Shown: piece by piece, positions 305-60,450 of the stretch
How the letters are laid out: each line of letters opens with the position of its first letter
Position numbering within the stretch: position 1 is the stretch's first letter
Position numbers and translations under genes: made by a program
Assembly: GCA_005116835.1 (NCBI GenBank)
Contig: SWDM01000012.1
Span: 36,454 to 100,453 of the forward strand
DNA length: 64,000 nucleotides
DNA from: Nitrospira sp.
Lineage (GTDB): Bacteria; Nitrospirota; Nitrospiria; Nitrospirales; Nitrospiraceae
Direction of reading: 5' to 3'
Notes under the pieces: generated by a model
The model's input: the letters and a program-made list of their open reading frames with translations, nothing else
Database searches by the model: none
What the model was told of the DNA's origin: nothing

Positions 305-396
305 GGTGAAAGGTGAGATGTGCGAGGATGAGTCTTTGGCATTCGCGCCTCAGCTCTGAGAGGAACGTTTCACTTTTTACGTCTAACTTTTCACGC
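305..396. repeat. Inverted pair of degenerate GTGAAAG/GTGAAAA heptamer runs (hairpin-forming)
   Basis: Left arm ggtgaaaggtgagatgtgcgagg (305-327) faces right arm cgtttcactttttacgtctaacttttcacgc (366-396). Lies between a convergent CDS end and the moaB stop. Confidence 0.6.
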
Positions 397-909
397 CTAC
401 TTTGTGAGTTCCTTCACCAGATGCCCCAACTCCGGTAGGATCAGCTTCTCCATCGCGAGCCGGACGGCGTTTTCTGAGCCTGGTGTCGAGAAGAGGACGC
501 GGCCTTTGATGATGCCGGCGGTGGCGCGGCTCATGATAGCCGGTGAGCCGATGTCCTGGTAGGTTAGGTAGCGGAAGATCTCGCCGAATCCCACCAATCG
601 TTTTTCCAGCATGGCGTCGACGGCTTCAAAGGTTGAATCCCGTTGTGAGATGCCGGTGCCGCCATTGATGATGATGGCTTGAATTGCTTCGTTCGCCACG
701 CCTTCAGCGATCCGGCCTGTGATCTGGGCCGGTTCATCCTTCACCAAATGGTACGAGATGACTTGATGCCCGAACTGCCTGAGAAGTTTGTGGATAAGTT
801 GCCCGCTTGTATCGGTGTCAGGGTTCCGCGTGTCGCTACAGGTAATCACCATGCACCCGATGGAGCGGGGTGCATGGGATTTGTGTTCTGTATGGCTGGG
901 CGTTGGCAT
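397..909 (-). CDS. moaB: Molybdenum cofactor biosynthesis protein B (MoaB/MogA family)
   Basis: 170 aa with SDTR...DTSG and INGGTGIS-RD motifs plus a FSTPGS tail, all typical of MoaB. Confidence 0.8.
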   Translation of the reverse strand: MPTPSHTEHKSHAPRSIGCMVITCSDTRNPDTDTSGQLIHKLLRQFGHQVISYHLVKDEPAQITGRIAEGVANEAIQAIIINGGTGISQRDSTFEAVDAMLEKRLVGFGEIFRYLTYQDIGSPAIMSRATAGIIKGRVLFSTPGSENAVRLAMEKLILPELGHLVKELTK

Positions 910-921
910 AGAGATTGTTAA

Positions 922-996
922 GCAAGAGGCTAGGGGCGAGTGGCTAGGGGCATGATTCGGAACTCATCCCTCGCCTCTAGCCCCTTGCCTCTAGCC
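922..996. repeat. Inverted heptad-type hairpin (GGCTAGGGG word)
   Basis: gcaagaggctaggggcgagtggctaggggc (922-951) faces ccctcgcctctagccccttgcctctagccc (968-996). Arms pair with G-T wobble positions. Fills the gap between the ferredoxin stop and the moaB start. Confidence 0.6.
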
Positions 997-1001
997 CGTT
1001 G

Positions 1002-1328
1002 TTATTTCCACACCGAATCCGGATTCAGCTTCGCTGCCGGTTTCCCGCCCTTGATGTGTTCGTCCAAGATCGTTGCCACGTCCGCTTCCGTGACTTTGGA
1101 GTACCACGTCGCATCCGGATAGACGACGACGGTCGGTCCCTGCTCGCAGGGGCCGAGGCAGGAAGAACCGCTGACGAGGACTTCGCCAGGCGTCACACCT
1201 TTCTGCATGAGGCCCATGTTAAAGGCCATGAGGAGGGAGGCTGACCCTGCGCTGCCACAGGAGGGTTTTGGATGGCCGGGGGGACGGGCATTGGTGCAGA
1301 CGACGATGTGATACTTTGGCTTTGGCAT
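1002..1328 (-). CDS. Thioredoxin-like [2Fe-2S] ferredoxin
   Basis: 108 aa with HIVVC...PSCGS...CLGPCEQGPTVVVYPD pattern. AAGGAG lies 5 nt upstream of the ATG. Confidence 0.75.
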   Translation of the reverse strand: MPKPKYHIVVCTNARPPGHPKPSCGSAGSASLLMAFNMGLMQKGVTPGEVLVSGSSCLGPCEQGPTVVVYPDATWYSKVTEADVATILDEHIKGGKPAAKLNPDSVWK

Positions 1329-1353
1329 GGGTTCTCCTTTTATGGTCGATGAA

Positions 1354-1429
1354 GCAATCAGCGTTCAGCTTGTCAGCATTCAGTTATCTTCAAGACAGAG
1401 CTGAAGGCTGATTGCTGTTGGCTGAAAGC
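1354..1429. repeat. Inverted heptad-type hairpin (TCAGC word)
   Basis: gcaatcagcgttcagcttgtcagcattcag (1354-1383) faces ctgaaggctgattgctgttggctgaaagc (1401-1429). The right arm is nearly identical to 54930-54954. Confidence 0.6.
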
Positions 1430-1433
1430 TATT

Positions 1434-1877
1434 TTACTGCGGCACGTACGACTTCCACGTATCGATGGCCTCTTCTGGCAATTTCCAATGTTTGAGTCCC
1501 TTCATGACCCAATCGAGGTAGTGTGCCTTGGGTTTAAACTTACCGATCGGAGTGGCGGCATAGGTGGTGACGAGTAGTTTGTCGCCTGTTTCCGTCAGCA
1601 CGGTGACTTGAACTTGTCGGAATGCGCTTGGTGGTACGTCTTCTTCGAAGAGATCCATTAGCTTGAGATCTTCGTCGGTCACTTCAAACACGCCTCCCCA
1701 TACTTGCTCTCCCGGTGATGGGATCACACTGGCAAGTCCGCATCGCCATTGAGAGGACCAGCGGCAGAATTTGATTGTGTGTTCGGGAAGAGTCGCCAGC
1801 ATGAGGAATCGATGTTCCGGAGCGCGGCGTTTCAGCTGTGTAGGATTCAGATGGTCGCCGTAGAGAAAGAACTTCAT
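1434..1877 (-). CDS. Gamma-glutamylcyclotransferase / AIG2-like family protein
   Basis: MKFFLYGDHLNP N-terminus and VWGGVFEV motif. Start placed at the ATG giving the family-typical MxxFxYG beginning; the ORF track start (1901) is an upstream GTG. Confidence 0.6.
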   Translation of the reverse strand: MKFFLYGDHLNPTQLKRRAPEHRFLMLATLPEHTIKFCRWSSQWRCGLASVIPSPGEQVWGGVFEVTDEDLKLMDLFEEDVPPSAFRQVQVTVLTETGDKLLVTTYAATPIGKFKPKAHYLDWVMKGLKHWKLPEEAIDTWKSYVPQ

Positions 1878-2130
1878 CGATGCTTCATTGCCCAAGGACA
1901 CAGTGAATGCGGCACACTCACCATTTGTAGCACAACCACTTTCCCCCCTACAAGATGAGTTCCCGCTAGCGGCTTGGGTCGAAGTAGTTAGATTGACATC
2001 GCGCCGGTTCTCTTCCTAAGATGCCGAGCCAACAAAAGCGGCGGTACCTCGTTTCCTCTGTCCTTGTTTGTAGTATGCCCATGAAACAGAATTCTTTTTC
2101 CTCAAGCCCTGTGCGTTCTTCGTCTCCATC

Positions 2131-2607: not shown

Positions 2608-2703
2608 CCGTCAATCGTCAACCGTCATTGTGAGAGAGAATAGGCCTTGGCGAACAGCGTCGCTACGTATTCACGTTTGACGAATGACGAGTGACGTTTG
2701 ACG
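2608..2703. repeat. Inverted heptad-type hairpin (CGTCAA word)
   Basis: ccgtcaatcgtcaaccgtcattg (2608-2630) faces cacgtttgacgaatgacgagtgacgtttgacg (2672-2703), between convergent genes. Confidence 0.6.
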
Positions 2704-2713
2704 AAATATCCTG

Positions 2714-3034
2714 CTACTTGAAATTTTCAGGTAGCGCCACCTGGACCTGATTTCCTTCAATCCTCACGGGACAGCAGGCGACGGTGATTGCAGGATTTTC
2801 TGGTCGTTCACCGGTCTGTAGGTTAAATCGCCATCCGTGCCAGGGACATTCAACGACGTGCCCATCCAGATATCCTTCTCCGAGCGGTCCCCCAGCGTGC
2901 GGGCAGGTATTGTCGACAGCGTAGAAGGTTCCATCGACATTGAAGAGAGCAATGCCGATTCCTTGTACTTGGACTGTTTGCCCTGCGCCCGGTGGAATGT
3001 CTTCTACGTTTGCGACGGCGATAAATTCTGGCAT
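2714..3034 (-). CDS. Rieske [2Fe-2S] protein, NirD-like small subunit type
   Basis: CPHAGGPL ... CPWHGWRF cluster ligands. Start at ATG 3034 (MPEFIAV), with GGAAGGA about 9 nt upstream; the ORF track N-terminal extension is discarded. Confidence 0.8.
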   Translation of the reverse strand: MPEFIAVANVEDIPPGAGQTVQVQGIGIALFNVDGTFYAVDNTCPHAGGPLGEGYLDGHVVECPWHGWRFNLQTGERPENPAITVACCPVRIEGNQVQVALPENFK

Positions 3035-3204
3035 CGTGCCGATCCTTCCCTTTGGCCGACTGGCGGATAGAACAGGTAGCGTTCTCAGACCTGTCAGTGA
3101 CTTGATTTCGACCAAGGCTTATGGCATAGAAATAGGTGCGTACTCCAATACTACACCTTGGCCTTCCCACACAAGGAGCCTCGGTTGGGAAATGAGGTTA
3201 CGGC

Positions 3205-3750
3205 ATGGAAATGACCCTTCTGCTGAACGCTACGTACGAACCCCTGCGGGTCGTCCATTGGCAAAAGGCGATCGCGCTCCTCTGGCAGGGCAAAGTCGAA
3301 GTCCTCGAGGTCTACGACCGAGAGGTCCACGCGGTATCGATCTCTTTTAAGCTTCCCTCGGTCATGCGGCTGCTCAAGCTGGTTCGGCTCAAGGATGTTC
3401 ACCGGGCAGTTAAGTTTTCCCGTATCAATATCTTTACAAGAGATGGGTATGCCTGCCAGTACTGTCGTCACAAGTTCAGGACCGAAGAGCTGACATTCGA
3501 TCATGTCGTTCCCATTGCCAAGGGCGGGCGAAAGACCTGGGAAAACATTGTGACGGCCTGTTGGCGCTGTAACAACAAAAAAAGCGGTCGTACGCCGGAA
3601 GAAGCCGGTATGAAGCTGATGAAGAAGCCGGTGAAGCCTCGTTGGAATCCAATCGTGACCATCACGATCGGGATCAGAAACACGCCGGACAGTTGGCGCG
3701 ACTATTTCTATTGGAATATGGAGCTCGATGCCGACCCCGCAGAAACCTAA
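3205..3750 (+). CDS. HNH endonuclease
   Basis: CQYC...FDHVVPIAKGG...N...CWRCNNKK, a HNH/zinc-finger signature. Confidence 0.8.
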   Translation: MEMTLLLNATYEPLRVVHWQKAIALLWQGKVEVLEVYDREVHAVSISFKLPSVMRLLKLVRLKDVHRAVKFSRINIFTRDGYACQYCRHKFRTEELTFDHVVPIAKGGRKTWENIVTACWRCNNKKSGRTPEEAGMKLMKKPVKPRWNPIVTITIGIRNTPDSWRDYFYWNMELDADPAET

Positions 3751-3760
3751 TTGGTAATTT

Positions 3761-3906
3761 TCAATGTGGAATGATGAATGATCAGTCTAGTTTTAGCCAC
3801 TCTTTCAGATCCTTCATTACCCTTCGTTAAACATTGACCATCTTTTTCAGCTCTGCCTGTCCTTTCTCCTCAACGAAACATTCATAATTCATCATTCAAC
3901 ATTCCT
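3761..3906. repeat. Inverted heptad-type repeat pair (TGAATGA word)
   Basis: tcaatgtggaatgatgaatgatc (3761-3784) faces aacattcataattcatcattcaacattcc (3877-3906). A 17-nt stretch is identical to the reverse complement of 51659-51675. Confidence 0.55.
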
Positions 3907-3954
3907 TCACCGGTGTTGTATGATACGCCCGGCGTTGAATTGGGAGGGATTATT

Positions 3955-4614
3955 ATGACGGCAAATTCTGGCTTTCCCTTGTCTCTCGATGTGAAGGGGT
4001 ACCCTGTGCTTGTCCTCGGGGGGGATGAGGAGGCCGCGGAAAAGACTCAGCGGTTGTTGGATGCTGGGGCGAAGGTAACGGTCGTGGCTCCGTCGCTGCA
4101 CGACGACTTGAAAAAGCTGGCTGCGTCGGGGAAGGTTGTGCACCGAGGACGACACTTTCGCGATGCCGATTTGGAAAACGCGATTCTGGTGCTGAACATG
4201 GTTCGCGGTGACCGGGACTTTTCCCGAGCGTTGTTTGCGAAGGCGCGCGAGAAGAAATGTGTGTTGTGGTCGGTTGACCAGCCAGAAGCCTCAACGGCGA
4301 CCATGCCGGCGGTGGTCGCTTGCGGCCATTTGCGTGTTGCCATCAGCACCAGCGGAGTTGCCCCGGCTCTATCGGGCTTTTTGAAGGAAGATATGGAGAA
4401 GATCTTCGGTGAGGAGTTTGCCGCCTTTGTCGAGTGGCTCGGCCAACTTCGCGAGCAAACCAAGGCCACAGAGCCTGATTTCGAAAAGCGCCGGACCTTG
4501 TTGCGCGAAGCGCTGGACGGGTTTCGCCTGTTGGGCAAGGTCCAGTATCCGAAGGTCTGGCTGGATGAGCGAGCGAAGTTGGCGGTGTCTCCTGGGGTAA
4601 AAGGGCAGGCGTAA
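3955..4614 (+). CDS. Precorrin-2 dehydrogenase / sirohydrochlorin ferrochelatase (SirC/Met8, CysG N-domain type)
   Basis: VLVLGGDEEAAEKTQRLLDAGAKVTVVAP Rossmann start and ISTSGVAPALSGFLK motif. GGGAGGG lies 8 nt upstream of ATG 3955. Confidence 0.7.
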   Translation: MTANSGFPLSLDVKGYPVLVLGGDEEAAEKTQRLLDAGAKVTVVAPSLHDDLKKLAASGKVVHRGRHFRDADLENAILVLNMVRGDRDFSRALFAKAREKKCVLWSVDQPEASTATMPAVVACGHLRVAISTSGVAPALSGFLKEDMEKIFGEEFAAFVEWLGQLREQTKATEPDFEKRRTLLREALDGFRLLGKVQYPKVWLDERAKLAVSPGVKGQA

Positions 4615-4664
4615 CCGGTAAGGGGTGAGGCGTAAGGCGTAAGGCGATTAGGAAGGGAGAAACG

Positions 4665-5140: not shown

Positions 5141-5318
5141 GCAGAATGTTGAAAATGTCCGCCAGCATTGTTCTTGTTTCGCTCCCGAAGGCCGTGAAGC
5201 ACGAGGCATAAAACGTAAAACTGGGGTCAGCCTCGGAGCTGCGGCCTTGCTTGGCCAAGGCGCGTCTCGTCGCGCTAGGGCTGAATGGGTGTGAAGTCCC
5301 GCCTTTTTGAACATCCTG
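5141..5318 (+). repeat. PE copy B (type 2 core, enlarged)
   Basis: gcagaatgttgaaaatgtccgccagc ... ccgtgaagcacgaggcataaaacgtaaaac ... cctcggagctgcggccttgc ... cctttttgaacatcctg. Carries an extra segment of about 45 bp in the right arm. Confidence 0.7.
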
Positions 5319-5882
5319 AGGTTATTGGAGTCATCGCTCATTCAGTCGTATTCCACGGTGTTGTATGTGCGTATCGAGTTTTTCGTAGCCTACTAGAGTG
5401 CGTCGAGCACAAGAGGCATTTTCTCAGCCTCCCGCCATTATTCCATCGTTCCACGGTATCCCGGCTTTTCCGTGACGCTGCTAATAGCAGGCCCAGCCTC
5501 TTGCTAGATATTGCGCATGGGAACTTTCTGCACCATGGCTGAATGAGAAATGCTGGTATTTATGCGAAGAACCAAGCGTATAATTAGTATTTGAAAGTAC
5601 TAGGGTACCTATGTATACTGCCGCCCCGTACACGAGTCTTGGTCACGATGAAGATGTGTGTTGTGTTCATGTTGAGAATAATCGATGGAGTTGCAGGATC
5701 TGCGATCAGATGCAAGGGCAGGGACCTGGAAAACTCGGAGGCGCATTCATTGGGCGTGCTGAGGTTATGTCATGGGCGAGAAGACGGGTGATGGATTGAT
5801 CGCCACGGTAGAACGATTGAGAGCGACAGGCTATCAGGATAGATGGCTATTCACGGGGGAGTGAATTCCACACAGGTGACCA

Positions 5883-10263: not shown

Positions 10264-10269
10264 CGGATT

Positions 10270-10410
10270 GGCGAGATGCGCGGGACGGGCGAGAAAGGCG
10301 CGATGTAGAGCCTCGTTTAAAGGCGTTAATCGTGAACCGTCAATCGTCGATTCACGTTTCACGAATAACGATTCACGCTGCCTGTCCCGCTTTTCCCGCC
10401 AGTCTCGCCC
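10270..10410. repeat. Nested inverted heptad repeats (GGCGAGA/GCGGGAC outer arms, CGTGAA/CGTCAA inner arms)
   Basis: Outer arms 10270-10302 and 10376-10410, inner arms 10331-10377. Occupies the whole gap between the convergent fadL-like gene and alr. Confidence 0.55.
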
Positions 10411-10414
10411 GTTG

Positions 10415-25937: not shown

Positions 25938-26136
25938 CCTGGGTACTTCCTTTGCTCGCGCAACGCGCGGCCTCGGAAGGCCCTCGTTGGACGCGCGCAG
26001 TTGGAACTACTCAGGCCACCCTTCTCCTGCTTTACGTGAAAAAAAACCGCATGTTATAGTCGCCGGAAAGTGTTGAGAGAGAGGATCGCCGGCGAACTCA
26101 TTTCACGTCTCACGATTCATGTTTCACGGGGGTTAA

Positions 26137-27641: not shown

Positions 27642-28850
27642 ATGACCAATGCCTCACTCGTGCAATCTCTCCATTCCCACCTGGCCCGGTGGGGCCTCCG
27701 GCGATTCACGTCGGATGAAGCTTATTTTCAGTGGCAGCGAGAGACCCTCTCGCAGGCGGAGGTCGCTGCATTACTTCGGGAAGTGGAACGGAAGCGCCGC
27801 GGATCTTCTCCCGACGAGATCTCGTTCTACGACGCCACAGCTGCGCCGAACATTCTGCCGGTTCTTTACAGCCAGCAATACGATTACTATCTCGCCATCG
27901 GGCCGCGCATAGCTGATCGCATCGGAAAAGCCCGGTCCATACAGTCCATACTTGATGTGGGCTGCGGAGTTGGCATTCTCACGACTTTCTATGCGAGGCA
28001 GTATCCCGATAGGACTTTCGTGGGGATCGATCGCTCATCTTCCTCCATTGCCCGCGCGCAGGAACAAGCAACGGCGCTTGGTTTAACCAATGTGCAGTTT
28101 GAATGTCTCGATCTTGAACAGATGCCTCTGACTCACACGTCAGACTTGATTGTTGCCACGCATGTTCTGGTGCAAGCTGAACAGGATCCAGGTGTTCCCA
28201 GTCGCAGTTGGAATACGTTTGAGCGTGCCGATGCCGATCAATTGCAAGCGGATTTCGAGCGGAGAACGGGGATCGGCGCCCGGCTCGATCGCCTGAGCGC
28301 GCTGCTTTCGGCGGAGGGGAGGCTATGTGTCTTTGAGAAGACCCGACAGTTGGCAAGACGGGTTCCGTTCCAGCGAGCCTTTGCGGCGCGGGGTTTTGGC
28401 CTAATGGAGCAGCCGGAATTGATTCGATACCGTCTCGTTGAAGAAGTGGCTGACGACGGACCTTTCTATGTGTTGGGGAGAACCGGATCGGAACGGTTTC
28501 ATTGGGACGATTCCCCTGAGCCGGATGCAGGCCCTCCGTTTGACCGAACAATCCTCACAACGAGCTCGCCTGACCCTGACGTACCGCTCTATGAGAACCA
28601 TTGGCCTTCCGCGCAACAGGTTTGGGAACAGCTGCACGATAAACGCGTGCTCGAAGAGACCACGAGCCAGGAGATAGATGGCCGGCAATTGCATGTTGAA
28701 TTGGGGCAGGCAGTCGAGGGGGTCTATCTCTATTTTGCCAACACCTTGGATCAGCGTCAGTTGGTCCTGGTGGAGCCGGCCCGCGCAACTATGCTGGAAT
28801 CCTATTATCAGGAGATCGTGAAGAGCACAGGCGATACCAGTGAAGCGTGA
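27642..28850 (+). CDS. Class I SAM-dependent methyltransferase
   Basis: ILDVGCGVGILT motif I. Start set to ATG 27642, outside the repeat; the last codons and the TGA lie inside a gtgaagc heptad run. Confidence 0.75.
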   Translation: MTNASLVQSLHSHLARWGLRRFTSDEAYFQWQRETLSQAEVAALLREVERKRRGSSPDEISFYDATAAPNILPVLYSQQYDYYLAIGPRIADRIGKARSIQSILDVGCGVGILTTFYARQYPDRTFVGIDRSSSSIARAQEQATALGLTNVQFECLDLEQMPLTHTSDLIVATHVLVQAEQDPGVPSRSWNTFERADADQLQADFERRTGIGARLDRLSALLSAEGRLCVFEKTRQLARRVPFQRAFAARGFGLMEQPELIRYRLVEEVADDGPFYVLGRTGSERFHWDDSPEPDAGPPFDRTILTTSSPDPDVPLYENHWPSAQQVWEQLHDKRVLEETTSQEIDGRQLHVELGQAVEGVYLYFANTLDQRQLVLVEPARATMLESYYQEIVKSTGDTSEA

Positions 28851-29029
28851 AGCGTTTCTCGTTTGAACAAGGAAGGTATAAGCGGAGAGAGTGGATCTGA
28901 AGAACGTATGGCATATGGTTGGAGGCTATGGGCGGCATCAGAGTGACCGAACCTCTTGCATAGGCCAGAGGCTCCTCTTTCTCCGGCAATAGGTCGGAGG
29001 CGATCATCTCCAGTCTTCCGTCCTATGCG

Positions 29030-32407: not shown

Positions 32408-32534
32408 GCAGGATGCTCAAAAAGGTCGCCCAGCAAGGCCGCACCTCCTCGGCAGCCCCTCGTTTCACGTTTCACGTCTCACGTTTAACGGTCCCTAAGC
32501 GAGAACGCCGCTGGCGGACTTTTTCAGCATCCTG
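32408..32534 (-). repeat. PE copy D (type 2 core, minus orientation)
   Basis: On the minus strand it reads caggatgctgaaaaagtccgccagc...cgtgagacgtgaaacgtgaaacg...gcggccttgctgggcgacctttttgagcatcctgc. Abuts the TAA (32535-32537) of the minus-strand yajD. Confidence 0.8.
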
Positions 32535-32864: not shown

Positions 32865-33032
32865 GTGCGCCTCGGAAAGAATTGGGGCGAACTACTGAGC
32901 GATTCTACATTAAGTTCCAGCGAGATGCTCTTAAAGACTGTCCAATGATCCGTGATATGTTTCGGAGGAAGAGCCCGCAGCAGTCCTACGTTTTACCTTT
33001 CACGTCTTACCTTTTACGGTTTTTGAGCGAAG

Positions 33033-43644: not shown

Positions 43645-43734
43645 CAGAAACCGTGAAAGGTAAAACGTAAAAGGTGAAACGAGAGATATCTGCGGACCTG
43701 CGGCCTTGCTGGGCGAACTTTTTGAGCATCCTGC
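43645..43734 (+). repeat. PE copy F (type 2 core, left arm missing)
   Basis: Begins right after the ung TAG: cagaaaccgtgaaaggtaaaacgtaaaaggtgaaacg...ctgcggccttgctgggcgaactttttgagcatcctgc. Confidence 0.65.
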
Positions 43735-49053: not shown

Positions 49054-49065
49054 TTGCGCGAAGTG

Positions 49066-49151
49066 CGTGACAAGCGGGACGAGCGAGAGGGGTAGAGACA
49101 GGACTAATCTTTTACGTCGCGATTTTCTCGCCTGTCTCGCTCATCTCGCCC
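49066..49151. repeat. Inverted heptad-type hairpin (GCGAGAC/GCGGGAC word)
   Basis: cgtgacaagcgggacgagcgagaggggtagagacagg faces gattttctcgcctgtctcgctcatctcgccc. Confidence 0.55.
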
Positions 49152-49617: not shown

Positions 49618-49625
49618 CAAAATGC

Positions 49626-49710
49626 CGTGAAACGTTAAACGTGAAAGGTGAAACGTCTCTCGTGAAGCGTAGTTCGCGAACGACGAGATACGAGATGCGA
49701 ACGACGTTTG
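49626..49710 (+). repeat. Tandem run of about 12 degenerate heptamers
   Basis: gtgaaac gttaaac gtgaaag gtgaaac gtctctc gtgaagc gtagttc gcgaacg acgagat acgagat gcgaacg, with strict 7-nt phase. Confidence 0.7.
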
Positions 49711-49744
49711 TCCAGTTACACATTTCAGATCAAGAGCCTGCCGC

Positions 49745-51568
49745 ATGACGATCCAGGAATCAGGCAAGATCACCCACCCCCTCAACGTGATTGTGGCTAC
49801 CGACTGCGGCAGTACCACGACCAAAGCCATTTTGATCGAGAAGGTCGGCGACGAATACCGGCAAACCTATCGCGGTGAAGCGCCGACGACGGTGGAAGCG
49901 CCCTTCGAAGATGTGACGCGCGGGGTCCTGAATGCGATCGCGGAGATTGAAGAGCTGTCCGGTCGGAAAATCCTCGACGGCGACAAGATCATCACACCCT
50001 GTCGCGATGCCAAGACCGGCGTCGATATTTATATTTCTACCAGCAGCGCGGGTGGCGGATTGCAAATGATGGTGACCGGGGTCGTGCAGAATATGACGGG
50101 CGAGAGCGCCCAACGAGCCGCACTTGGGGCCGGCGCGATTGTTATTGACGTGCTCGCGTCGAACGATGGCCGGTTGCCGCATGAGAAGATCGAACGTATC
50201 AGGACCATGCGTCCGGACATGATCTTGATGTCCGGTGGGACGGACGGCGGCGCGGTCACCCATGTGGTCGAAATGGCGGAATACATATCGGCAGCGGAGC
50301 CACGCCCACGCTTCGGGGCGACCTACAAGCTCCCGTTGGTCTACGCAGGCAATAAAGATGCGCAGCCGCAAGTGAAGAAGATTCTGGGGGAGAAGACCGC
50401 ATTGGTGCTGACCGATAATATTCGTCCAGTGTTGGAGCGGGAGAACCTCGCGCCGGCGCGCAACAAGATCCACGACTTGTTTCTCGAACATGTCATGCAG
50501 CAAGCGCCGGGCTACAAGAAACTGATCGAGATGGCCGGCGCGCCGATCATGCCGACGCCGGCGGCGGTCGGCGTCATCATGGAAACGATCGCCAAGCGGG
50601 AGCATCTGAACTTGATCGGGGTGGATATCGGAGGCGCCACCACGGACGTGTTCTCGGTGTTTGAAGGACTCTTCAATCGAACCGTCAGCGCGAACCTTGG
50701 AATGTCGTACAGTATTTCCAATGTGCTGGCGGAAGCAGGGCTCGCCAATATCATGCGATGGGTGCCCTTCACGATCGACGAACAGACGCTTCGCAACCGG
50801 ATCAAGAACAAGATGGTCCGGCCGACGACGATTCCGCAGACGTTGGACGAGTTGCAGATCGAACATGCAATTGCCCGCGAAGCGCTCCGGCTTGCCTTGA
50901 TCCATCATAAGTCCCTTGCGACGGCTCTCAAGGGCATACAGCAAGAACGCACGATTTCTGATGTGTTCGAGCAGCAGCAGTCCGGCAAAACGCTGATCGA
51001 CATGCTCAAGCTGGATTTGATCGTCGGAAGCGGCGGGATTCTGTCCCATGCGCCGCGTCGTGTGCAATCGATGCTGATGATGGTGGATGCCTATGAGCCA
51101 CTCGGGGTGACGAGGCTCTCAGTGGACAGCATCTTTATGATGCCGCATCTGGGTGTCCTCTCGACGATCAACGAAAAGGCGGCAACCGATGTGTTCGTTC
51201 GCGATTGCATGGTCTACTTGGGGACCTGCGTTGCGCCGATCGGGCAGGGAAAGGACGGGGAACGGTGCGCAGATTATGTCATCACGTTCCCGGATGGCCG
51301 AGTGGACAAGGGGCAACTGTTGTTCGGCGACCTGCGGCTGGTGCCCCTGGCCGGCGATCAGAAAGCGTCGATCACGATCCAGCCGGCCAAACAGGTCAAT
51401 CTTGGGGCCGGGGCGGGACTGTCGGTCACGCGAGAGGTGCAGGGCGGTGTGGTGGGCCTCATGCTCGATAGCCGAGGGCGTCCGTTACAGTTGCCGTCCG
51501 ATCACAATGCCAGAGTCGCAGCCTTGATGAAATGGTACAACGCAGTCGGGCTATATCCGACGGCATAA
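49745..51568 (+). CDS. GlmL/MutL-like (glutamate mutase accessory protein family) ASKHA-fold ATPase
   Basis: VATDCGSTTTKAIL (phosphate-1), GVDIGGATTDVF (phosphate-2) and SGGTDGG. 607 aa. No B12 mutase gene nearby. Confidence 0.75.
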   Translation: MTIQESGKITHPLNVIVATDCGSTTTKAILIEKVGDEYRQTYRGEAPTTVEAPFEDVTRGVLNAIAEIEELSGRKILDGDKIITPCRDAKTGVDIYISTSSAGGGLQMMVTGVVQNMTGESAQRAALGAGAIVIDVLASNDGRLPHEKIERIRTMRPDMILMSGGTDGGAVTHVVEMAEYISAAEPRPRFGATYKLPLVYAGNKDAQPQVKKILGEKTALVLTDNIRPVLERENLAPARNKIHDLFLEHVMQQAPGYKKLIEMAGAPIMPTPAAVGVIMETIAKREHLNLIGVDIGGATTDVFSVFEGLFNRTVSANLGMSYSISNVLAEAGLANIMRWVPFTIDEQTLRNRIKNKMVRPTTIPQTLDELQIEHAIAREALRLALIHHKSLATALKGIQQERTISDVFEQQQSGKTLIDMLKLDLIVGSGGILSHAPRRVQSMLMMVDAYEPLGVTRLSVDSIFMMPHLGVLSTINEKAATDVFVRDCMVYLGTCVAPIGQGKDGERCADYVITFPDGRVDKGQLLFGDLRLVPLAGDQKASITIQPAKQVNLGAGAGLSVTREVQGGVVGLMLDSRGRPLQLPSDHNARVAALMKWYNAVGLYPTA

Positions 51569-51689
51569 ATGATGAATGTTGAATTTTGAATGATGAATGG
51601 TAAACGAGGATTCATAGAAAGCACAGGTTTGTGGGGAGCCGAGGGGATGAGTTTCTTAATTCATCATTCCACATTCCAGATTCCACATT
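51569..51689. repeat. Inverted heptad-type repeat pair (TGAATGA word)
   Basis: atgatgaatgttgaattttgaatgatgaatgg faces ttaattcatcattccacattccagattccacatt. Starts 1 nt after the TAA of the upstream gene. Confidence 0.65.
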
Positions 51690-51699
51690 GAGCTGAAGT

Positions 51700-52833: not shown

Positions 52834-52959
52834 CGGGATGCTGAAAACGTCTGCCAGCTTCGTTCTCGGCTCTTCGAAATCCTCAACGTACCCCAGAGGG
52901 TACGCCTCCGGTTTCGACTCGCCTGCGGCCTTGCTGAACAGACGTTTTGAGCATCCCGC
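52833..52959 (+). repeat. PE copy I (type 1 core)
   Basis: Overlaps the last base of the upstream TAG. Both termini carry gcgggatgct / agcatcccgc and acgtctg / cagacgt variants. Confidence 0.85.
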
Positions 52960-52975
52960 CTTATGGAAGGCATTG

Positions 52976-54220
52976 ATGCTCCTGCTCATGACTGTTCTGA
53001 GTCAGTCATGGTCGCCGGTGTTTGCCCAAACCGACATCCAGACGAAGACGCCACTCGCGCCGCCGCAAGATGTTCGTGTGTTCGATACACCGAGCGATGG
53101 TGGCGATAGCCTAACCGTGATATGGGCTCCCGCTCCCTACGATAGTGCTGCGGTGAGGTATCAGGTATTACTCAGTGAGGGAACGTCGGTCGCAGATCCG
53201 GCTACCATGAAGGTCGTGGCGGAATTTCCGGCGAACCAGCGCTATGTCCGAGAATCCAAGTGGCCCTGGTGGACGAGGCCGGCGACCGGCGACCAGCACC
53301 AGTATACGCTGAGGAGTGGAAGGGGAGTCGAGCTGAAGAGCGGAACTCTATACAGCATCACCGTGGCTACGGTGCTGAACGACGAACGCAGCATTGCCGC
53401 GCCGGGACAGGCCGCGCCGGAACCGAATTGGATCAATTGGAACCAGATGAATAATCTTCTATTGGCGCTCCTGTTCGGCGGGATCGTGTTCTACGCCATC
53501 GGTACCGCCAGAAAACGTGAGATTTTCCTCCGGCGCATTCCCGGCCTCGATGCAGTGGATGAGGCGATCGGCCGCGCAACCGAGTTGGGTAAGCCGATTC
53601 TGTACATGACCGGCGCCCATGACATGAGCGATCCATCGACCATTGCGGCGGCGGTTATTCTTGGGCGTGTGGCCAAACGAGCGGCGGCCTATGAGACCGA
53701 TTTACTGGTACCCCACCGCGAGCCGATCACCATGGCGGTGTGCCAGGAGATTACGAAGCAGGCCTATCTGGAAGCAGGCAAACCCGATCTTTACAAGGAC
53801 GATTCCAATTTCTTCATTACGTCGGATCAGTTCAGCTATACCGCGGCGGTGGACGGCATCATGTTGCGGAAAAAACCTGCAGCGAACTTCTTTATGGGAC
53901 ATTATTTTGCCGAGGCATTGCTTCTGACGGAAACGGGCGCGAGCACCGGCGCAATCCAAATCGCCGGGACGGACTCCGATCATCAGCTGCCGTTCTTCGT
54001 CACTACCTGCGATTACACCTTGATCGGGGAAGAACTCTACGCTGCCAGCGCGTACCTCTCCAGAGAGCCGGTGCAGGTCGGCACATTGCGTGGGCAAGAC
54101 ATCGGCAAAGCCCTCATCCTCGGCGTCCTTGGTATCGGTACGATACTGGCTACTCTTGGGATCCTGTTCGATGCCCAGTGGCCAAAATTATTCCTAGACT
54201 TTTTCAGGGACGTGAAATGA
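52976..54220 (+). CDS. Membrane protein: signal peptide, FN3-like domain, TM, large conserved domain, C-terminal TM
   Basis: MLLLMTVLSQSWSPVFAQ; PPQDVRVFDTPSDGGDSLTVIWAPAPY...YQV (FN3-like); hydrophobic helices at about aa 150 and at the C-terminus. The N-terminal track extension lies in PE copy I and is rejected. Confidence 0.6.
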   Translation: MLLLMTVLSQSWSPVFAQTDIQTKTPLAPPQDVRVFDTPSDGGDSLTVIWAPAPYDSAAVRYQVLLSEGTSVADPATMKVVAEFPANQRYVRESKWPWWTRPATGDQHQYTLRSGRGVELKSGTLYSITVATVLNDERSIAAPGQAAPEPNWINWNQMNNLLLALLFGGIVFYAIGTARKREIFLRRIPGLDAVDEAIGRATELGKPILYMTGAHDMSDPSTIAAAVILGRVAKRAAAYETDLLVPHREPITMAVCQEITKQAYLEAGKPDLYKDDSNFFITSDQFSYTAAVDGIMLRKKPAANFFMGHYFAEALLLTETGASTGAIQIAGTDSDHQLPFFVTTCDYTLIGEELYAASAYLSREPVQVGTLRGQDIGKALILGVLGIGTILATLGILFDAQWPKLFLDFFRDVK

Positions 54221-54867
54221 TCTTTCTCCGACGACAGGGTCCGCTCCTGGTTACCCTCATCACCGGGCTCGTGTTTGCGGCTCAATACTATGTGCCGCAC
54301 CCGGCTTCGGAGCAGATGTTGACCTCCGTCACGAAATGGCTCCAGATCATCGGTGGGTTCGCGCTGGTGCTGGGAGTCAGCAGTCTGTTCCACGTCCATG
54401 CCGCCAAGATCCGGCGCAAAGAAGCGGGCTGGGGTTATAGTTTTGTCCTCTATGTCGGCATGCTGGGGACTATTGCGCTCGGCTTCTGGTCTAACGGCAA
54501 GGAAGCAATCGACGGCACCATGACGGCATTCGGGTGGATCTATAACTATATGATGGTCCCGCTGCAGGGAACGATGTTTGCGATTCTCGCCTTCTTCATC
54601 GCCTCGGCAGCCTATCGCTCGTTCCGCGCGCGGAGCCGTGAGGCGGCGGTGCTGCTCATTGCGGCGGTGATTGTCATGATGGGTCGCGTCCCGCTTGGAG
54701 AATATCTGATCCCGATCAGCGGCGACCTGTCCCAGTGGATCTTAAATGTGCTGAATGCGTCGGTGCGGCGCGCGATCCTGATCGGCGTCAGTCTCGGCAC
54801 AGTTGCGCTCTCCATCAAGATCATCTTCGGCATGGAACGGTCGTATCTTGGGGGAGGCAAGGAGTGA
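54217..54867 (+). CDS. Integral membrane protein (about 5 TM)
   Basis: The ATG overlaps the upstream TGA (ATGA). 216 aa, hydrophobic throughout. Confidence 0.6.
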   Translation: MIFLRRQGPLLVTLITGLVFAAQYYVPHPASEQMLTSVTKWLQIIGGFALVLGVSSLFHVHAAKIRRKEAGWGYSFVLYVGMLGTIALGFWSNGKEAIDGTMTAFGWIYNYMMVPLQGTMFAILAFFIASAAYRSFRARSREAAVLLIAAVIVMMGRVPLGEYLIPISGDLSQWILNVLNASVRRAILIGVSLGTVALSIKIIFGMERSYLGGGKE

Positions 54868-54874
54868 TGACGAG

Positions 54875-54955
54875 CGATCAGCTATCAGCCGTCAGCTCTC
54901 AGCTCCGGAATCGAGGACTCGCCTGTTACCTGAAGGCTGATTGCTGATGGCTGAG
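54875..54955. repeat. Inverted heptad-type hairpin (TCAGC word)
   Basis: gcgatcagctatcagccgtcagctctcagctc faces cctgaaggctgattgctgatggctgag. Confidence 0.65.
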
Positions 54956-54981
54956 TGCCCGGTGGCGACGAAGGAGCGACC

Positions 54982-55827: not shown

Positions 55828-55833
55828 CGATCG

Positions 55834-56586
55834 ATGCCGATTGAAACTATCATCGGGGGCTGGGTGGCGACGGGGTTAACCCTCTTCATCTTTTCATTTC
55901 TCTATAAGGATAACCCGCTCTTCAAGCTGGCGGAGAATCTCTACGTCGGCGTGTCGGTCGGCTACACGATCATCAAGACCTACGACACCGTAGTCGTCCA
56001 GCTCATCTGGAAGCCGATCGTCGAGAACGGGGAATGGACATTGTTGATTCCAGTCGCCATCGGGATGCTCATGCTCACACGTTATGTTCCGAAAGCCGCC
56101 TGGATCTCGCGATACGCATTTGCCTTCATTGTGGGCGTCGGGTCAGGGCTCGCCATCCCTCGGACCATCTCCTCCTTTATCTTGAAACAGATCGAAGATA
56201 CGGTTCGCCCGCTACTGACGTTGATACCGGGCGAGGGTGTGACCTTTACTTGGAGCCTGTTGAATCCCGCTAGTAGCGTGAACACCATCATTATCCTGAT
56301 CGGCGTCAGCTCCGTGCTGTTCTATTTCTTTTTCTCTGTCGAGCACAGGGGGCCTGGCAAGGTTGTGGCCCGCACGGGCATCATGTTCCTGATGATCGCC
56401 TTCGGCGCGGCCTTCGGCTACACCGTGATGGCCCGCATGTCGCTCTTGATCGGGCGATTGACCGACCTCATCGAGTTCACCGATCCCTCCTATGGCAGGC
56501 CGAGCCTCTGGCTCGCTGGGTTGACCATTCTCACCCTAGTGGTGATGGCTCGCCGGTCCAGAAGCCATCCACCCGAAGAAAAGTAG
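55834..56586 (+). CDS. Integral membrane protein (about 7 TM)
   Basis: 250 aa. Starts 6 nt after the upstream stop. No family recognised. Confidence 0.6.
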   Translation: MPIETIIGGWVATGLTLFIFSFLYKDNPLFKLAENLYVGVSVGYTIIKTYDTVVVQLIWKPIVENGEWTLLIPVAIGMLMLTRYVPKAAWISRYAFAFIVGVGSGLAIPRTISSFILKQIEDTVRPLLTLIPGEGVTFTWSLLNPASSVNTIIILIGVSSVLFYFFFSVEHRGPGKVVARTGIMFLMIAFGAAFGYTVMARMSLLIGRLTDLIEFTDPSYGRPSLWLAGLTILTLVVMARRSRSHPPEEK

Positions 56587-56668
56587 GTTTGTTTTGTTTG
56601 TTTGGTTGAACGAGACTGCCTAATGAATCAAATCAACAAAATAAACCAGATGAACCAACCAAACCAGC
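56587..56668. repeat. Inverted heptad-type hairpin (AACCAGA / GTTTGTT word)
   Basis: gtttgttttgtttgtttggttgaac faces caacaaaataaaccagatgaaccaaccaaaccagc. Begins at the base after the TAG. Confidence 0.6.
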
Positions 56669-56726
56669 TCCCGGTTGCAGCTAGCGCGACTCCCTCGCTA
56701 CAATGGGCGCTCAAAAAAGGAGCGTC

Positions 56727-57974: not shown

Positions 57975-58060
57975 CATCGGCTGCTGAAACAGACTCCCAG
58001 CTGCGTGCTCACCTCGAACAGGTCCTCAACGTACCCGATTGGGACAAGAGCTGCTTGGCA
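57974..58060 (+). repeat. Degenerate PE copy K (approximate limits)
   Basis: Follows the TAG: gcatcggctgctgaaacagactcccagctgcgtgctcacctcgaacaggtcctcaacgtaccc... The right arm has largely decayed. Confidence 0.35.
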
Positions 58061-58351
58061 GCTCGGGGTGGGCGGGTGAGAACTGTTACGCCTCCTGTTG
58101 TGGCTCCCTGCAGCCTCGTTGTTTGTCCTGTTGGAAGTGCCTGGGCCTTTCGAGTTCGTGTCTTGCTCATGGACCATTTCCCTCGCTCGTGCGAACTAAC
58201 AAACCGCAGTTCAACACAGCGGTTGAGTCAGTGCATTGCGCCATAACGACATCAATTCCAAGAGGCTTGTCATCAGTTCAGGCTAGTCAGAGACTCTTCA
58301 TGAGGCGGATAATAATGTGGAAAAGTTATTTGTGAATTATGGATAAAACCG

Positions 58352-58636
58352 TTAAGCCTTTGGGTTCTCTTTCTCTGGTCCAGATGGACCCCAGAGATCG
58401 CCTAAGCCTAGCGAGTCCCACAAGTCTTTCTCAGACTTGGGGGGAGCTCCCTCAAGAAAGTTGGCGAGGATTTTCGATTTGTAGGCTGCAGCGTGCGGGC
58501 GGCATTTCTTTACCGCAGCTGCATATTCCTGTTTCGATACACGCAAGCTTTGAAGGAGAACGCCCTGAGCCAGTATGAGAGCGTGATGAACCGAAAGCGC
58601 ATGGGCCAGACTCTCAATGAGTTTGCGATTTGTCAT
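58352..58636 (-). CDS. Hypothetical protein
   Basis: AAGGAGG lies 7 nt upstream of ATG 58636. 94 aa. No family recognised. Confidence 0.45.
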   Translation of the reverse strand: MTNRKLIESLAHALSVHHALILAQGVLLQSLRVSKQEYAAAVKKCRPHAAAYKSKILANFLEGAPPKSEKDLWDSLGLGDLWGPSGPEKENPKA

Positions 58637-59023
58637 GAGTGAACCTCCTTAAGGATGATGCCATTCAACACCTCAATATGGTCACTAATCTGCTGCCATG
58701 GCCGCGTCATGTGGAGAGAGCGATGAATCAGGCGGAAATAAAAATCCGGAAATACAGCACGATGGCGGCTGCGAGGTTAGCCAACTTGCTTGAGAAAGCC
58801 AAGGTCAGCCTGTGAAAACGAGCGATTTTTATTCTGCGCTCATGCGTTCTCCTCTTGCACCTTCATCCTCGCCCGGCTAAAATAGCATGAGTTTTCCTGA
58901 AAATAAGTGCTCTAGAACCGCTGGAGCACCAACGGCTGTCTAGAGGACAGGTGGCACTCTCGTCATTCTGTTAACTAACCCTGAATATTTCCCTATCTTT
59001 GTGGGAATAAGGAGTTGAGGGTC

Positions 59024-59371
59024 ATGGCACTACTGATTACCGACGAATGTATTAACTGTGGAGCTTGTCTGCCAGAATGTCCGAATGAAGCGATCTTCGA
59101 AACTCGCGGCGACGCGGAGGCGAAGGGAAATCATGTGGGCGACGGTCAGGGAGTCGGAGACGCTATTTACGTGATTACCCATGAGCGGTGTACTGAGTGT
59201 GTCGGTCATTTTGACGAACCTCAATGCACGGCGGTTTGTCCGGTGGATAATTGTTGCATCGCTGATCCAGCCTATCCGGAGGCCACGGATATTCTGCTGG
59301 AAAAGGCGAAGAAACTCAATCCTGACAAGGCCATCGACCCGGCAAAAGTTTGGAGCGGCGTGCGGAACTAG
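59024..59371 (+). CDS. YfhL-type 2x[4Fe-4S] ferredoxin
   Basis: CINCGACLPECP and CTECVG...CTAVCP. AAGGAG lies 9 nt upstream of ATG 59024. Confidence 0.85.
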   Translation: MALLITDECINCGACLPECPNEAIFETRGDAEAKGNHVGDGQGVGDAIYVITHERCTECVGHFDEPQCTAVCPVDNCCIADPAYPEATDILLEKAKKLNPDKAIDPAKVWSGVRN

Positions 59372-59781
59372 TCATTATCCCTTGGAAGAACCGCGCGACA
59401 CTTGCCATCTGTATTTGCCACCACGCTGCTACCAGGACAGGACATATCCCCCCCAGCACCCCCAACGTAGGAGCATTATGGCTTGTGGTTCCTTGTGGGG
59501 TTAGGTTGTCTGCGTTAGGGCTAGGGAAGTCAAATCTCAGGGTTCAAAAACTACGGTTTGTGATTGGCTTGGCCGGCAAAGGCATGATCGAAGACCGCTC
59601 TAAGGTGTGAGTTGAAATGCCTGAGCGATGATTCCACTGCGGGCATCGAGCGATCACCGTTTTATTACTTTCTCCCATGAGGGCTGGCTAGATGGTTTCC
59701 CTACGCGTGTTCTGCGGGGGGTCTTCCGAGACCGCGCGTTGCTCGAGCACAGGAGATTATTTAGGCTGCCCTCCGCTCCCT

Positions 59782-60303
59782 CTATTCTTTGACTGACATG
59801 GTGATCGTAATCGGCTTCAGAGGGTTGTCGAATTCGTCGCGCGGCGCGGCGACGATCTTGTCCACCACGTCCATGCCGCGAAAGACCTCGCCGAAGACGG
59901 TGTAGGTACGGTCCAGCCCGCTGTTATCATCGACACAGATATAAAACTGCGAGCCGTTATCGTTGGGGTCACGCGTGCTGTTGCTCTCTCGTGGAACCTT
60001 TGCCATGCCGATCGCGCCCCGTTTATGCGGACGATCGCTGGTTTCAGGATTGAGCCAATAGCCAGGACTGCCGGATCCGTGGAGTGCACGGTCTGCGGTC
60101 TTGCTCAGTGGATCGCCGCCCTGGATGATGAATCCTGGAACGACGCGATGGAAAGTGGTTCCATCGTAGAACCTCATCTTGGCGAGCTTCAGAAAGTTCT
60201 CGACGTGGCGTGGAGCGTCATCCGGGTAGAATCGAATCTTGATCTCGCCGAGTGGCGTCGTAATGGTAACGCGCGGGTCGATCTTTTGAAATTGCATGGT
60301 CAT
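59782..60303 (-). CDS. ppiB: Peptidyl-prolyl cis-trans isomerase, cyclophilin type
   Basis: FHRVVPGFIIQGGDP...GSQFYI. Confidence 0.9.
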   Translation of the reverse strand: MTMQFQKIDPRVTITTPLGEIKIRFYPDDAPRHVENFLKLAKMRFYDGTTFHRVVPGFIIQGGDPLSKTADRALHGSGSPGYWLNPETSDRPHKRGAIGMAKVPRESNSTRDPNDNGSQFYICVDDNSGLDRTYTVFGEVFRGMDVVDKIVAAPRDEFDNPLKPITITMSVKE

Positions 60304-60343
60304 TGCGTCAACCTAGCAAGGACAACGTTCAAGAGGCAAGAGA

Positions 60344-60450
60344 CGTGAAAGGTGAAACGTAAAAAGTGAAACGTCTCAGAGCACCCAAGACATCGGCCTC
60401 GCTTTTCTGCTTCATCCGTTTCACGTCTAACCTTTCACGTTTCACGCTTC
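60344..60450. repeat. Inverted heptad-type hairpin (GTGAAAC word)
   Basis: cgtgaaaggtgaaacgtaaaaagtgaaacgtct faces ccgtttcacgtctaacctttcacgtttcacgcttc. The right arm supplies the last codons (KRET) and the stop of the MFS gene. Confidence 0.7.

Follow-up and report, generated by a model that had tools for sequence, protein, structure and literature searches.

Genomic setting and features of the window

The DNA analyzed here (hereafter the window) is a 64,000-nucleotide (nt) chromosomal segment of a Nitrospira species (assembly GCA_005116835.1, contig SWDM01000012.1, positions 36,454 to 100,453), some of whose intergenic gaps hold palindromic elements built from degenerate 7-nt repeats. Its gene content is ordinary housekeeping, including rpsB-tsf-pyrH-frr, alr, zwf, gnd, and a PPIase gene. 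For its glutamate mutase L gene (49745-51568; PF13941/TIGR01319), the best relatives show 96-97% protein identity, and all of them belong to Nitrospira or Nitrospiraceae, as do 160/160 related loci, placing the DNA outside the host range (heterocystous cyanobacteria) of the short tandemly repeated repetitive (STRR) heptamers. An earlier reading of the same DNA (the original prediction) held that degenerate heptamer runs of several word families, mostly arranged as inverted pairs, fill almost every gap between genes.

Relatives were gathered by protein search, and the matches listed were all at least 87% identical. The comparison set comprised 81 Nitrospira loci (the window plus L001-L080; 1.415 Mb); 80 metagenome loci were added later, giving near-identical pairs and an enlarged set of 2.14 Mb. 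A lag-7 run was called where at least 14 positions of a 21-nt scanning window matched the base 7 nt farther on, and mononucleotide shuffles served as the null for run counts. Folding z-scores were computed against dinucleotide-preserving shuffles in the window and against mononucleotide shuffles for all loci. Pfam scanning covered 60 open reading frames (ORFs) of the window. The arrays and hairpins of the window are as follows (z, folding score).

298..403, no strand: GTGAAAC-type inverted pair in a convergent gap (arms 298-329 and 372-403; z -1.8); the 3' arm overlaps the stop of a MoCF_biosynth gene (397-909, minus).
919..1001, minus: GGCTAGG/CCTAGCC inverted pair (arms 919-955 and 962-1001; z -3.95), adjoining the stop of a 2Fe-2S ferredoxin-like gene (1002-1328, minus).
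1353..1430, minus: TCAGC/GCTGA inverted pair (arms 1353-1383 and 1396-1430; z -3.2); the stop of gene 1434-1901 (minus) is 3 nt away.
2608..2708, no strand: CGTCAA/TTGACG inverted pair in a convergent gap (arms 2608-2629 and 2667-2708; z -2.85), 5 nt from the stop of a Rieske gene (2714-3115, minus).
3754..3909, plus: TGAATGA/TCATTCA inverted pair (arms 3754-3787 and 3873-3909; loop ~85-100 nt; z -1.6), starting 3 nt past the stop of a stand-alone HNH endonuclease gene (3205-3750); no evidence of a link between this gene and the adjacent hairpin was found.
4607..4655, plus: solo GTAAGGC array (z +0.5) overlapping the stop of gene 3913-4614, with TAA or TGA in phase with that stop (TAACCGG TAAGGGG TGAGGCG TAAGGCG TAAGGCG).
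10264..10414, no strand: nested hairpin (z -5.1) occupying the whole convergent gap between a FadL-like gene and alr; outer arms GCGAGAC/GCGGGAC-type (10270-10303 and 10381-10412), inner hairpin CGTGAA/CGTCAA-type (10320-10381).
26097..26130, plus: solo TTTCACG array (reverse-oriented member of the GTGAAAC family), with a short G+C-rich stem ahead of it and gene 26137 just downstream.
28836..28867, plus: short array of 2.3 GTGAAGC units overlapping the stop of gene 27600-28850.
32453..32495, plus: solo array of 4.3 CGTTTCA units lying in the apical region of a palindromic element of 125 nt (32403-32540).
32983..33022, no strand: solo array of 14-nt period, ACGTCTTACCTTTC, belonging to the GTGAAAC family; it lies in a convergent gap, with the stop of a P-II-like gene (33033-33347, minus) 10 nt away.
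43645..43688, plus: solo CGTGAAA/GGTAAAA array beginning directly past the stop of a UDG-family gene; a half terminus (43699-43734) of the 125-nt element comes next.
49060..49151, plus: GCGAGAC/GTCTCGC hairpin of irregular period (z -3.4), 6 nt past the stop of gene 48535-49053.
49622..49710, plus: a CGTGAAA-type solo array and, after it, an inner hairpin CGTCTCT.../...ACGAGAT, together 12 units in 7-nt phase; they belong to a 127-nt insert separating two genes whose ends overlap as ATGA in ~55 related species.
51560..51695, plus: TGAATGA/CATTCCA inverted pair (arms 51560-51608 and 51650-51695; z -1.1), beginning in phase at the TAA stop of glutamate mutase L and ending just before the next start.
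54867..54966, plus: TCAGC/GCTGA inverted pair filling the gap 54868-54954, with one mismatch per heptamer (z -3.2).
56586..56668, plus: related, non-heptameric hairpin GGTTTGTTT/AAACCA with period 9 (4+5; z -2.6), starting at the stop of gene 55834-56586.
60328..60458, minus: GTGAAAC inverted pair (arms 60344-60373 and 60417-60446; z -3.2) overlapping the stop of an MFS gene (60435-61718, minus).
61832..61914, no strand: period-9 hairpin TAAACCAGA (z -5.65) inside the termini of a 125-nt element (61791-61920).

Specificity of the 7-nt period

The window holds 26 runs at lag 7, whereas shuffles gave 2.2 and other lags 0-12; the harmonic, lag 14, gave 19. Under a stricter count, 85 stretches of 28 nt had at least 20/28 lag-7 matches, and among lags that are not multiples of 3 only lags 14 (22 stretches) and 17 (7 stretches) yielded any others. 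Intergenic autocorrelation in the window was 0.2725 at lag 7, compared with ~0.25-0.256 at lags 5, 6, and 8 and 0.248 in coding sequence, and Tandem Repeats Finder reported period-7 or period-14 arrays at nearly all coordinates of the original prediction. The intergenic enrichment at period 7 that this prediction had called for was present across the 81 loci, with lag-7 runs at 95/100 kb in intergenic and 7.4/100 kb in coding sequence (~13-fold). Runs at lags 4, 5, 8, 10, 11, and 13 amounted to 3-14/100 kb, those at lag 9 to 36, and those at lag 14 to 69. At least one lag-7 run was found in 43 of the 52 loci longer than 15 kb, and the 228 runs yielded 123 consensus words.

The degenerate intergenic runs first described are therefore real and specific to period 7, but their extent had been overstated. 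Rather than almost every gap, only 16 of the 49 window gaps counted (each at least 40 nt) contain a run, and the elements occupy ~1.7 kb of ~13 kb of non-coding DNA. Two of the proposed word families are not 7-periodic. The AACCAGA family (15265, 43815, 56587, and also 61832) has a period of 9 or 4-5 (4+5), and the GCGAGAC family is irregular, lags 9 and 11 being at least as strong as lag 7 at ~49060 and ~44930. Several GTGAAAC arrays (32453, 41995, and 43645) and the hairpin at 61832 lie in or beside a separate 125-nt palindromic element, which the original prediction had not told apart. At 49626-49710, the claim of strict phase held: a CGN/ACG anchor keeps 7-nt phase over 12 units (lag-7 match 0.56).

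Beside these arrays, period-9 arms (GGTTTGTTT / AAACCAGAT) occur at 56586-56668 and 61832-61914. In the gap from 55834 to 56703, lag-9 runs were found in 16/46 species and lag-7 runs in 0/46; therefore, a slot can hold a non-heptamer period across species.

Pairing, folding, and position relative to genes

Over all loci, 68% of intergenic runs are accompanied, no more than 220 nt away, by an inverted partner scoring above the 95th percentile of the null. Among 96 non-redundant paired elements, the median folding z was -3.7 and 83% fell below -2. In the window, z was about -2.6 to -5.6 in 9 of the 12 paired or hairpin regions folded and -1.1 to -1.8 in the other three, so that the long imperfect hairpins originally proposed can indeed form beyond what shuffled sequence allows. 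Stems are 25-35 bp long with ~1 mismatch per heptamer, and loops are 6-100 nt, mostly 25-100 nt. Within the window, inverted partners were found at the spacings first described (6-101 nt between arms), but the inverted arrangement is not universal, as six arrays (4607, 26097, 32453, 32983, 43645, and 49622) are solo. Nesting of one hairpin in another occurs at 10264-10414 of the window and also in L006, L019, L025, L030, and L033.

The elements are placed behind genes. None of the 9 head-to-head gaps of the window contains a run (Fisher P = 0.02). Over all loci, runs occur in 113/480 gaps between two plus-strand genes, 20/112 between two minus-strand genes, 13/92 convergent gaps, and 2/105 divergent gaps; the divergent value differs sharply from that of all other gaps (146/684; Fisher P = 6e-8). 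Sixteen of 20 window elements lie 24 nt or less from a gene's 3' end. Paired elements are ~98 nt long, and 94/100 lie in co-directional gaps. Their median start is at -2 nt relative to the end of the stop codon, and their median end lies 8.5 nt ahead of the next start; the paired element is in effect the whole gap. Read in the direction of the upstream gene, the 5' arm of all paired elements contains 32% G and 16% C and the 3' arm 28% C and 19% G, and the 5' arm is the richer in G+T in 72/99 elements.

Stop triplets within the arrays

At least one of TAA, TAG, and TGA occurs, on one strand, in 84 of the 123 consensus words compared with 70.6 expected (P ~0.001). Relative to other intergenic DNA, TGA is enriched 2.0-fold and TAA 2.2-fold (TGA, TAA, and CGT range from 1.9- to 2.2-fold), and the majority of recurrent 5-mer cores contain TGA. 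Where a gene's stop codon is followed by an array, downstream stop triplets fall in phase 0 modulo 7 with it 92 times, compared with ~52 expected (chi-square P = 8e-12). Examples are TAAATGA TGAATGT TGAATTT TGAATGA at 51566 and TAACCGG TAAGGGG TGAGGCG TAAGGCG at 4612. Since 7 is coprime to 3, a stop-bearing array closes all three frames within three units, an argument already made for the TAACTGA repeats (MacGregor, 2015; PMC4679880).

Turnover at fixed slots

Most species have a heptamer-periodic palindrome in the gap that follows glutamate mutase L, with differing words. Families at this slot include TGAATGA, GAGTTCT, GAGGYTRAGG, TGATGAG/GGGTGAT, ATAGC/TATGGC, TCAGC, GGCGAGG/CCTAGCC, GAGTGCT, and GAGGACT, so that one slot houses ~ten families across species, patchily distributed over the gene tree; in L008, L016, L060, and L062 there is almost no gap at all. 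A second slot (54178 to 54955) is likewise varied and holds other families. Heptamer words reappear at unrelated gaps of the window and, therefore, form a genus-wide vocabulary.

The slot before glutamate mutase L (49618-49744 in the window; compared in L001-L080) shows presence and absence. In ~55 species the two genes meet in an ATGA stop/start overlap, and in 21 species a homologous structured insert of 97-196 nt, often exactly 106 nt, lies between them. In some inserts, the apex houses a further, nested hairpin from a different family, and the insert is bounded on either side by an ATGA(C) motif. Glutamate mutase L itself differs in its first 10-18 codons between the insert and overlap states.

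Comparison of orthologous gaps for expansion and contraction, which the original prediction had suggested, revealed whole-unit changes of 7 or 14 nt between strains. In three pairs with flanking genes 99.8, 98.7, and 97.7% identical (L020/L086, L022/L110, and L026/L124), the arms differ by clean indels of 14, 14, and 7 nt, respectively, and L010 and L012 are one 7-nt unit apart. These whole-unit indels are direct evidence of array expansion and contraction and indicate slipped-strand mispairing. Outright exchange was also observed: L022 and L023, 97.3% identical, carry different families at the same slot, with flanks 92-100% identical up to the element borders. The two-sided flank test applies to this pair only, other pairs being interpretable for their downstream flanks alone. 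The share of gap comparisons that could not be aligned rose with third-position divergence, from 1/8 (<3%) through 5/13 (3-8%) and 25/34 (8-14%) to 46/59 (14-25%), and elements that still aligned diverged no faster than third codon positions. Therefore, turnover proceeds by replacement rather than drift. Among orthologous hairpins scored for covariation, double changes were found in 1/23 and 0/30 pairs, copies being either conserved or replaced.

Arms recur between sites. A 30-mer, CGTGAAACGTGAAAGGTTAGACGTGAAACG (60417-60446, minus), was found with 0-3 changes at no fewer than 5 non-orthologous positions in other species, its copies often solo and directly between a stop codon and the next start. 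A 25-nt arm of the TCAGC family is 96% identical between 1401-1425 and 54930-54954, and the element at 54868 has almost invariant arms and a variable loop in five species. Arms 25-33 nt long show at least 90% identity between sites in both the GTGAAAC and the TCAGC family, as in the inverted doublets of repetitive extragenic palindromic (REP) sequences and the REP doublets that form hairpins (REPINs). A full-length second copy of any heptamer hairpin was found neither in the 64-kb window nor in the 1.4 Mb of loci; matches were confined to arms.

Comparison with known repeat systems

The short tandemly repeated repetitive heptamers of cyanobacteria were reportedly described by Mazel and colleagues in 1990 (a work cited in PMC4692102). 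They form several word families per genome (STRR1 CCCCAGT, STRR2 TTGGTCA, and STRR3 CAACAGT), dispersed, mainly intergenic, and lineage-wide. The resemblance to STRRs that the original prediction noted stands for unit length, degeneracy, the number of families, and dispersed, mainly intergenic location, but does not extend to membership: STRRs belong to another phylum and are usually longer direct arrays, and neither palindromic pairing nor abutment to stop codons, both features of the Nitrospira elements, defines them. Tandem dimers of STRR words (one mismatch allowed) numbered 0 in the window and 0-2 in 2.1 Mb of Nitrospira loci, and words known from STRRs, Xanthomonas, Nostoc, and Beggiatoa gave no tandem dimers in the window.

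REPs are tolerated inside operons, where they stabilize upstream mRNA. Like the Nitrospira elements, REPs, their mosaic composites (BIMEs, bacterial interspersed mosaic elements), and REPINs (Bertels and Rainey, 2011; PMC3116915) are extragenic and mostly behind genes, come in several families per genome, and have inverted doublets with conserved arms of ~25 nt that fold into long imperfect hairpins. However, the REP unit is itself an imperfect palindrome without a 7-nt period, and REPINs exist as many near-identical copies tied to a REP-associated tyrosine transposase (RAYT) gene, whereas the Nitrospira elements vary in unit number and have no full-length copies in the loci and no RAYT among the window ORFs scanned.

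A close counterpart is the GGGAATC repeat of Xanthomonas (Rehm et al., 2015; PMC4692102), for which the inverted-pair architecture, of which the original prediction knew no description, had already been reported. These degenerate tandem heptamers are ~90% intergenic, mostly of ~4 units, near the upstream ORF (mean 28 nt), and between divergent genes in 7-8% of cases; 70-75 cases of two convergent arrays could form stem-loops, and, at a given gene pair, close species differ in the length and sequence of the arrays (PMC4692102). This is essentially the same architecture, for a single G-rich word. Shared with Nitrospira are the convergent pairs of heptamer arrays, their place at the end of the upstream ORF, and their rarity in divergent gaps. 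The Xanthomonas word is capable of forming G-quadruplexes (G4), whereas Nitrospira has at least 10 unrelated families, none of them G4-prone; in-phase stops, nesting, and same-slot family replacement, all seen in Nitrospira, were not reported for Xanthomonas. The TAACTGA repeats of Beggiatoaceae, Cyanobacteria, and Bacteroidetes (PMC4679880) are likewise intergenic, stop-bearing heptamers that overlap ORF ends by a few bases and adjoin translation signals, but their word is absent here. In most bacterial genomes, heptamers reportedly outnumber all other long simple repeats (Mrázek, 2007, as summarized in PMC4679880 and PMC4692102), and these later papers summarize Mrázek's proposal that ~7 nt is a polymerase-contact length favoring slippage. 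As the original prediction supposed, our literature search, itself incomplete, returned no description for Nitrospira. Rfam 15 gave no match in the window on either strand at the gathering score.

Two other classes were considered and rejected. For G-quadruplex repeats, the window holds two G4 motifs, both outside arrays, and GGGAATC is absent. For integron attC sites, the flanking genes are syntenic housekeeping genes genus-wide, the window has no integrase of that type, and GTTRRRY-like heptamers lie in the wrong arm. Classical miniature inverted-repeat transposable elements (MITEs), defined by terminal inverted repeats, a target-site duplication, and multiple full-length copies, appear to be a poor match, as no full-length hairpin copies were found in the loci; the arms could serve as terminal inverted repeats, and at one slot the insert has an ATGA(C) motif on either side.

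Nature and origin of the elements

These comparisons show a lineage-wide class of palindromic heptamer elements that lie behind genes, slip by whole units, share arms, nest, and are replaced locally. What is new is the extension of the heptamer-hairpin kind to Nitrospira, with unusually many word families and fast turnover. We favor regarding the elements as REP/STRR-like palindromic heptanucleotide-repeat elements of the genus with a putative REP-like function as 3' or intercistronic hairpins, a reading whose chances we judge to be about even.

An element consists of 3-6 degenerate 7-nt units, usually facing their own reverse complement 6-100 nt away; it begins at or over a stop codon and, in co-directional gaps, ends a few bases before the next start. 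Arrays change length by whole units, which indicates slipped-strand mispairing, arms of one family are copied between unrelated sites, entire elements are replaced wholesale at a fixed slot, and newer hairpins are seated in the apex of older ones. On this reading, the elements would persist only where they are harmless, i.e., behind genes and outside the promoter-bearing head-to-head gaps. Words with TGA, TAA, or TAG would be favored, and an array of them might abut or overrun the end of an ORF without lengthening it. In an operon transcript, the palindrome would fold and bring the stop near the next start, and so could be tolerated between coupled cistrons. As for REPs, the hairpin at the 3' end or between cistrons may act as a barrier to mRNA decay or as a partial read-through attenuator.

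Several points weigh against this reading. The role at the RNA level is one that we infer in its entirety, and stem mismatches show no excess of G·U over A·C (96 vs. 86, P = 0.5; 203 mismatches are transversions), although an RNA structure under sense-strand selection would be expected to have one. The sense RNA thus bears no mark of selection, and the palindromes look symmetric at the level of DNA. Neutral slippage does not explain the near-invariant TCAGC arms with a variable loop in five species, nor the 30-mer that is identical between sites in species ~12% diverged; both indicate either constraint on the sequence itself or active copying by some mechanism. The frame argument does not explain 7 over 4, 5, or 8. 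In addition, many comparisons rest on orthologous loci, so that counts are partly non-independent, and the gene calls were home-made.

The terminator role that the original prediction implied found no support in its canonical form. Intrinsic terminators are also hairpins behind genes, but they have a short G+C-rich stem, a loop of 3-8 nt, and a U-tract, whereas the Nitrospira elements have mismatched stems, longer and more variable loops, and no U-tract. The 12 nt after the 3' arm contain on average 3.0 T compared with 2.9 in the background, and 6 or more T in 3% of cases compared with 5.6%. A scan of the window for canonical terminators returned 18 sites against 17.6 expected, one of which overlaps an element. 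Most elements fill co-directional gaps and leave no room there for a promoter; therefore, strong termination would silence the downstream gene. The elements are thus neither canonical intrinsic terminators nor demonstrably sense-RNA structures.

REPIN-like mobile DNA, terminators lacking a U-tract, and protein-binding arrays are explanations that do not exclude one another. It is possible, though we think it unlikely, that the elements are non-autonomous mobile DNA (REPIN- or MITE-like) whose families are moved in trans, e.g., by a RAYT-type Y1 transposase, and insert at stop codons or hairpin apices. Mobility would fit the sharp-bordered exchange of unrelated families at one slot in genomes 95-97% identical, the 97-196 nt element with ATGA(C) at both ends where most species have the ATGA overlap, the nested hairpins, the conserved arms of 25-32 nt common to unrelated sites and species, and the retention of arms while the loop varies. 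It fits poorly with second copies that extend to arms only, with unit numbers that vary and may differ between the two arms, and with a word diversity (123 consensus words among 228 runs) well beyond that of known REPIN families. The codon differences at the start of glutamate mutase L between filled and empty slots mean that the insertion is not a clean one, and the 60 window ORFs scanned against Pfam contain no Y1/RAYT match, the sole transposase being IS3-type (rve).

That the elements are selected RNA hairpins, i.e., U-tract-less ("I-shaped") terminators that act bidirectionally in convergent gaps and have the 7-nt period as a by-product, appears improbable. The missing T-tract, the lack of G·U bias, and the many species without any element at the same junction all speak against it, as does the predominance of co-directional gaps, where paired elements end ~8 nt before the next start and conserved downstream genes would be silenced. 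Nevertheless, strong folding and restriction to gaps holding a gene 3' end are what such terminators would display; canonical terminators are not enriched, which leaves a vacancy, and 60304-60453 has an inner G+C-rich stem followed by a T-rich GTTTCAC arm.

A bolder proposal, which we advance as a conjecture with little expectation that it is correct, is a genus-wide pool of interchangeable, frame-proof palindromic cassettes whose hairpins would hold a stop beside the next start and so preserve translational coupling across a 100-nt spacer. A dedicated copying mechanism aimed at hairpins would swap or nest the cassettes, or a protein whose footprint spans 7 nt would read them. If true, unit stops in phase with the gene's stop would close every frame on both strands, the cassettes would be a new class of operon-architecture element, and the preference of bacteria for heptamer repeats would be explained.

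Protein binding in its simpler form, already proposed for the TAACTGA repeats (MacGregor, 2015; PMC4679880), would make the arrays cooperative sites for a protein with a ~7-nt footprint (cold-shock-domain or S1-domain) that melts or stabilizes the hairpin and tunes coupling or decay. Such binding could account for the strict 7-nt spacing, for the conserved 3-5 nt core (TGA, CGT) amid variable positions, for solo GTGAAAC arrays conserved between stop and next start in many species, and for arm conservation that includes mismatched positions. The very high word diversity and the interchangeability of families at one slot speak against this explanation, which we regard as very improbable, and no candidate protein was identified.

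Finally, chance, low-complexity sequence, or assembly artifact is refuted for practical purposes, for although short arrays of 2-3 units (e.g., 28836 and 41995) are individually weak, the excess of runs over shuffles, the confinement of the signal to lag 7, its presence in 161 independent assemblies, with some contigs of several Mb, and partner and folding statistics far outside controls all contradict it.

No function or origin has been established for bacterial heptanucleotide repeats. Nitrospira, a key nitrifier genus, offers an unusually rich case, with many families, pairing, in-phase stops, and nesting. Because hundreds of its species have been sequenced, gain, loss, slippage, and replacement can be followed at fixed slots flanked by conserved genes. 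The questions of why 7, and of whether such repeats are selfish, mutational, or functional, thereby become tractable. The elements are also hypervariable markers for strain typing in metagenomes. Gene calling is affected as well, by stops and starts inside arrays and by ORFs mis-extended through palindromic elements.

A separate 125-nt palindrome and other features

Apart from the heptamer elements, the window contains a dispersed palindrome of ~125 nt with termini GCAGGATGCTGAAAAAGTC...GACTTTTTCAGCATCCTGC, which folds at -52 to -69 kcal/mol and has no Rfam match. Copies lie at 5141-5319, 27503-27625, 32403-32540, 41952-42074, 44786-44911, 47030-47154, 52833-52959, and 61791-61920, with half termini at 160 and 43699-43734. 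In the 2.14 Mb of Nitrospira loci, we counted 210 termini and 62 complete copies, 50 of which are 120-129 nt long. The left end is TAGC in 32/62 copies, and in the window that TAG is often the stop codon of the upstream gene. In some copies, a heptamer or period-9 array replaces the usual apex.

The longest ORF of the DUF6754 gene (52820-54220, plus) starts at a TTG and runs through the 125-nt element at 52833-52959. Since in relatives this junction is occupied by a solo GTGAAAC array and their protein match begins at residue 39-66, the true start probably lies downstream of ~52960.

A low-GC island at 36000-42000 (GC 0.48 compared with 0.55 elsewhere) is probably acquired DNA. Its genes include an IS3-family transposase (35489-36418; rve + HTH_21), a caspase-domain protein (36787-38307), an astacin-like ORF, and a 651-aa ORF without a Pfam match. 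A ParE toxin / Phd-YefM antitoxin pair is encoded at 29030-29563 on the minus strand.

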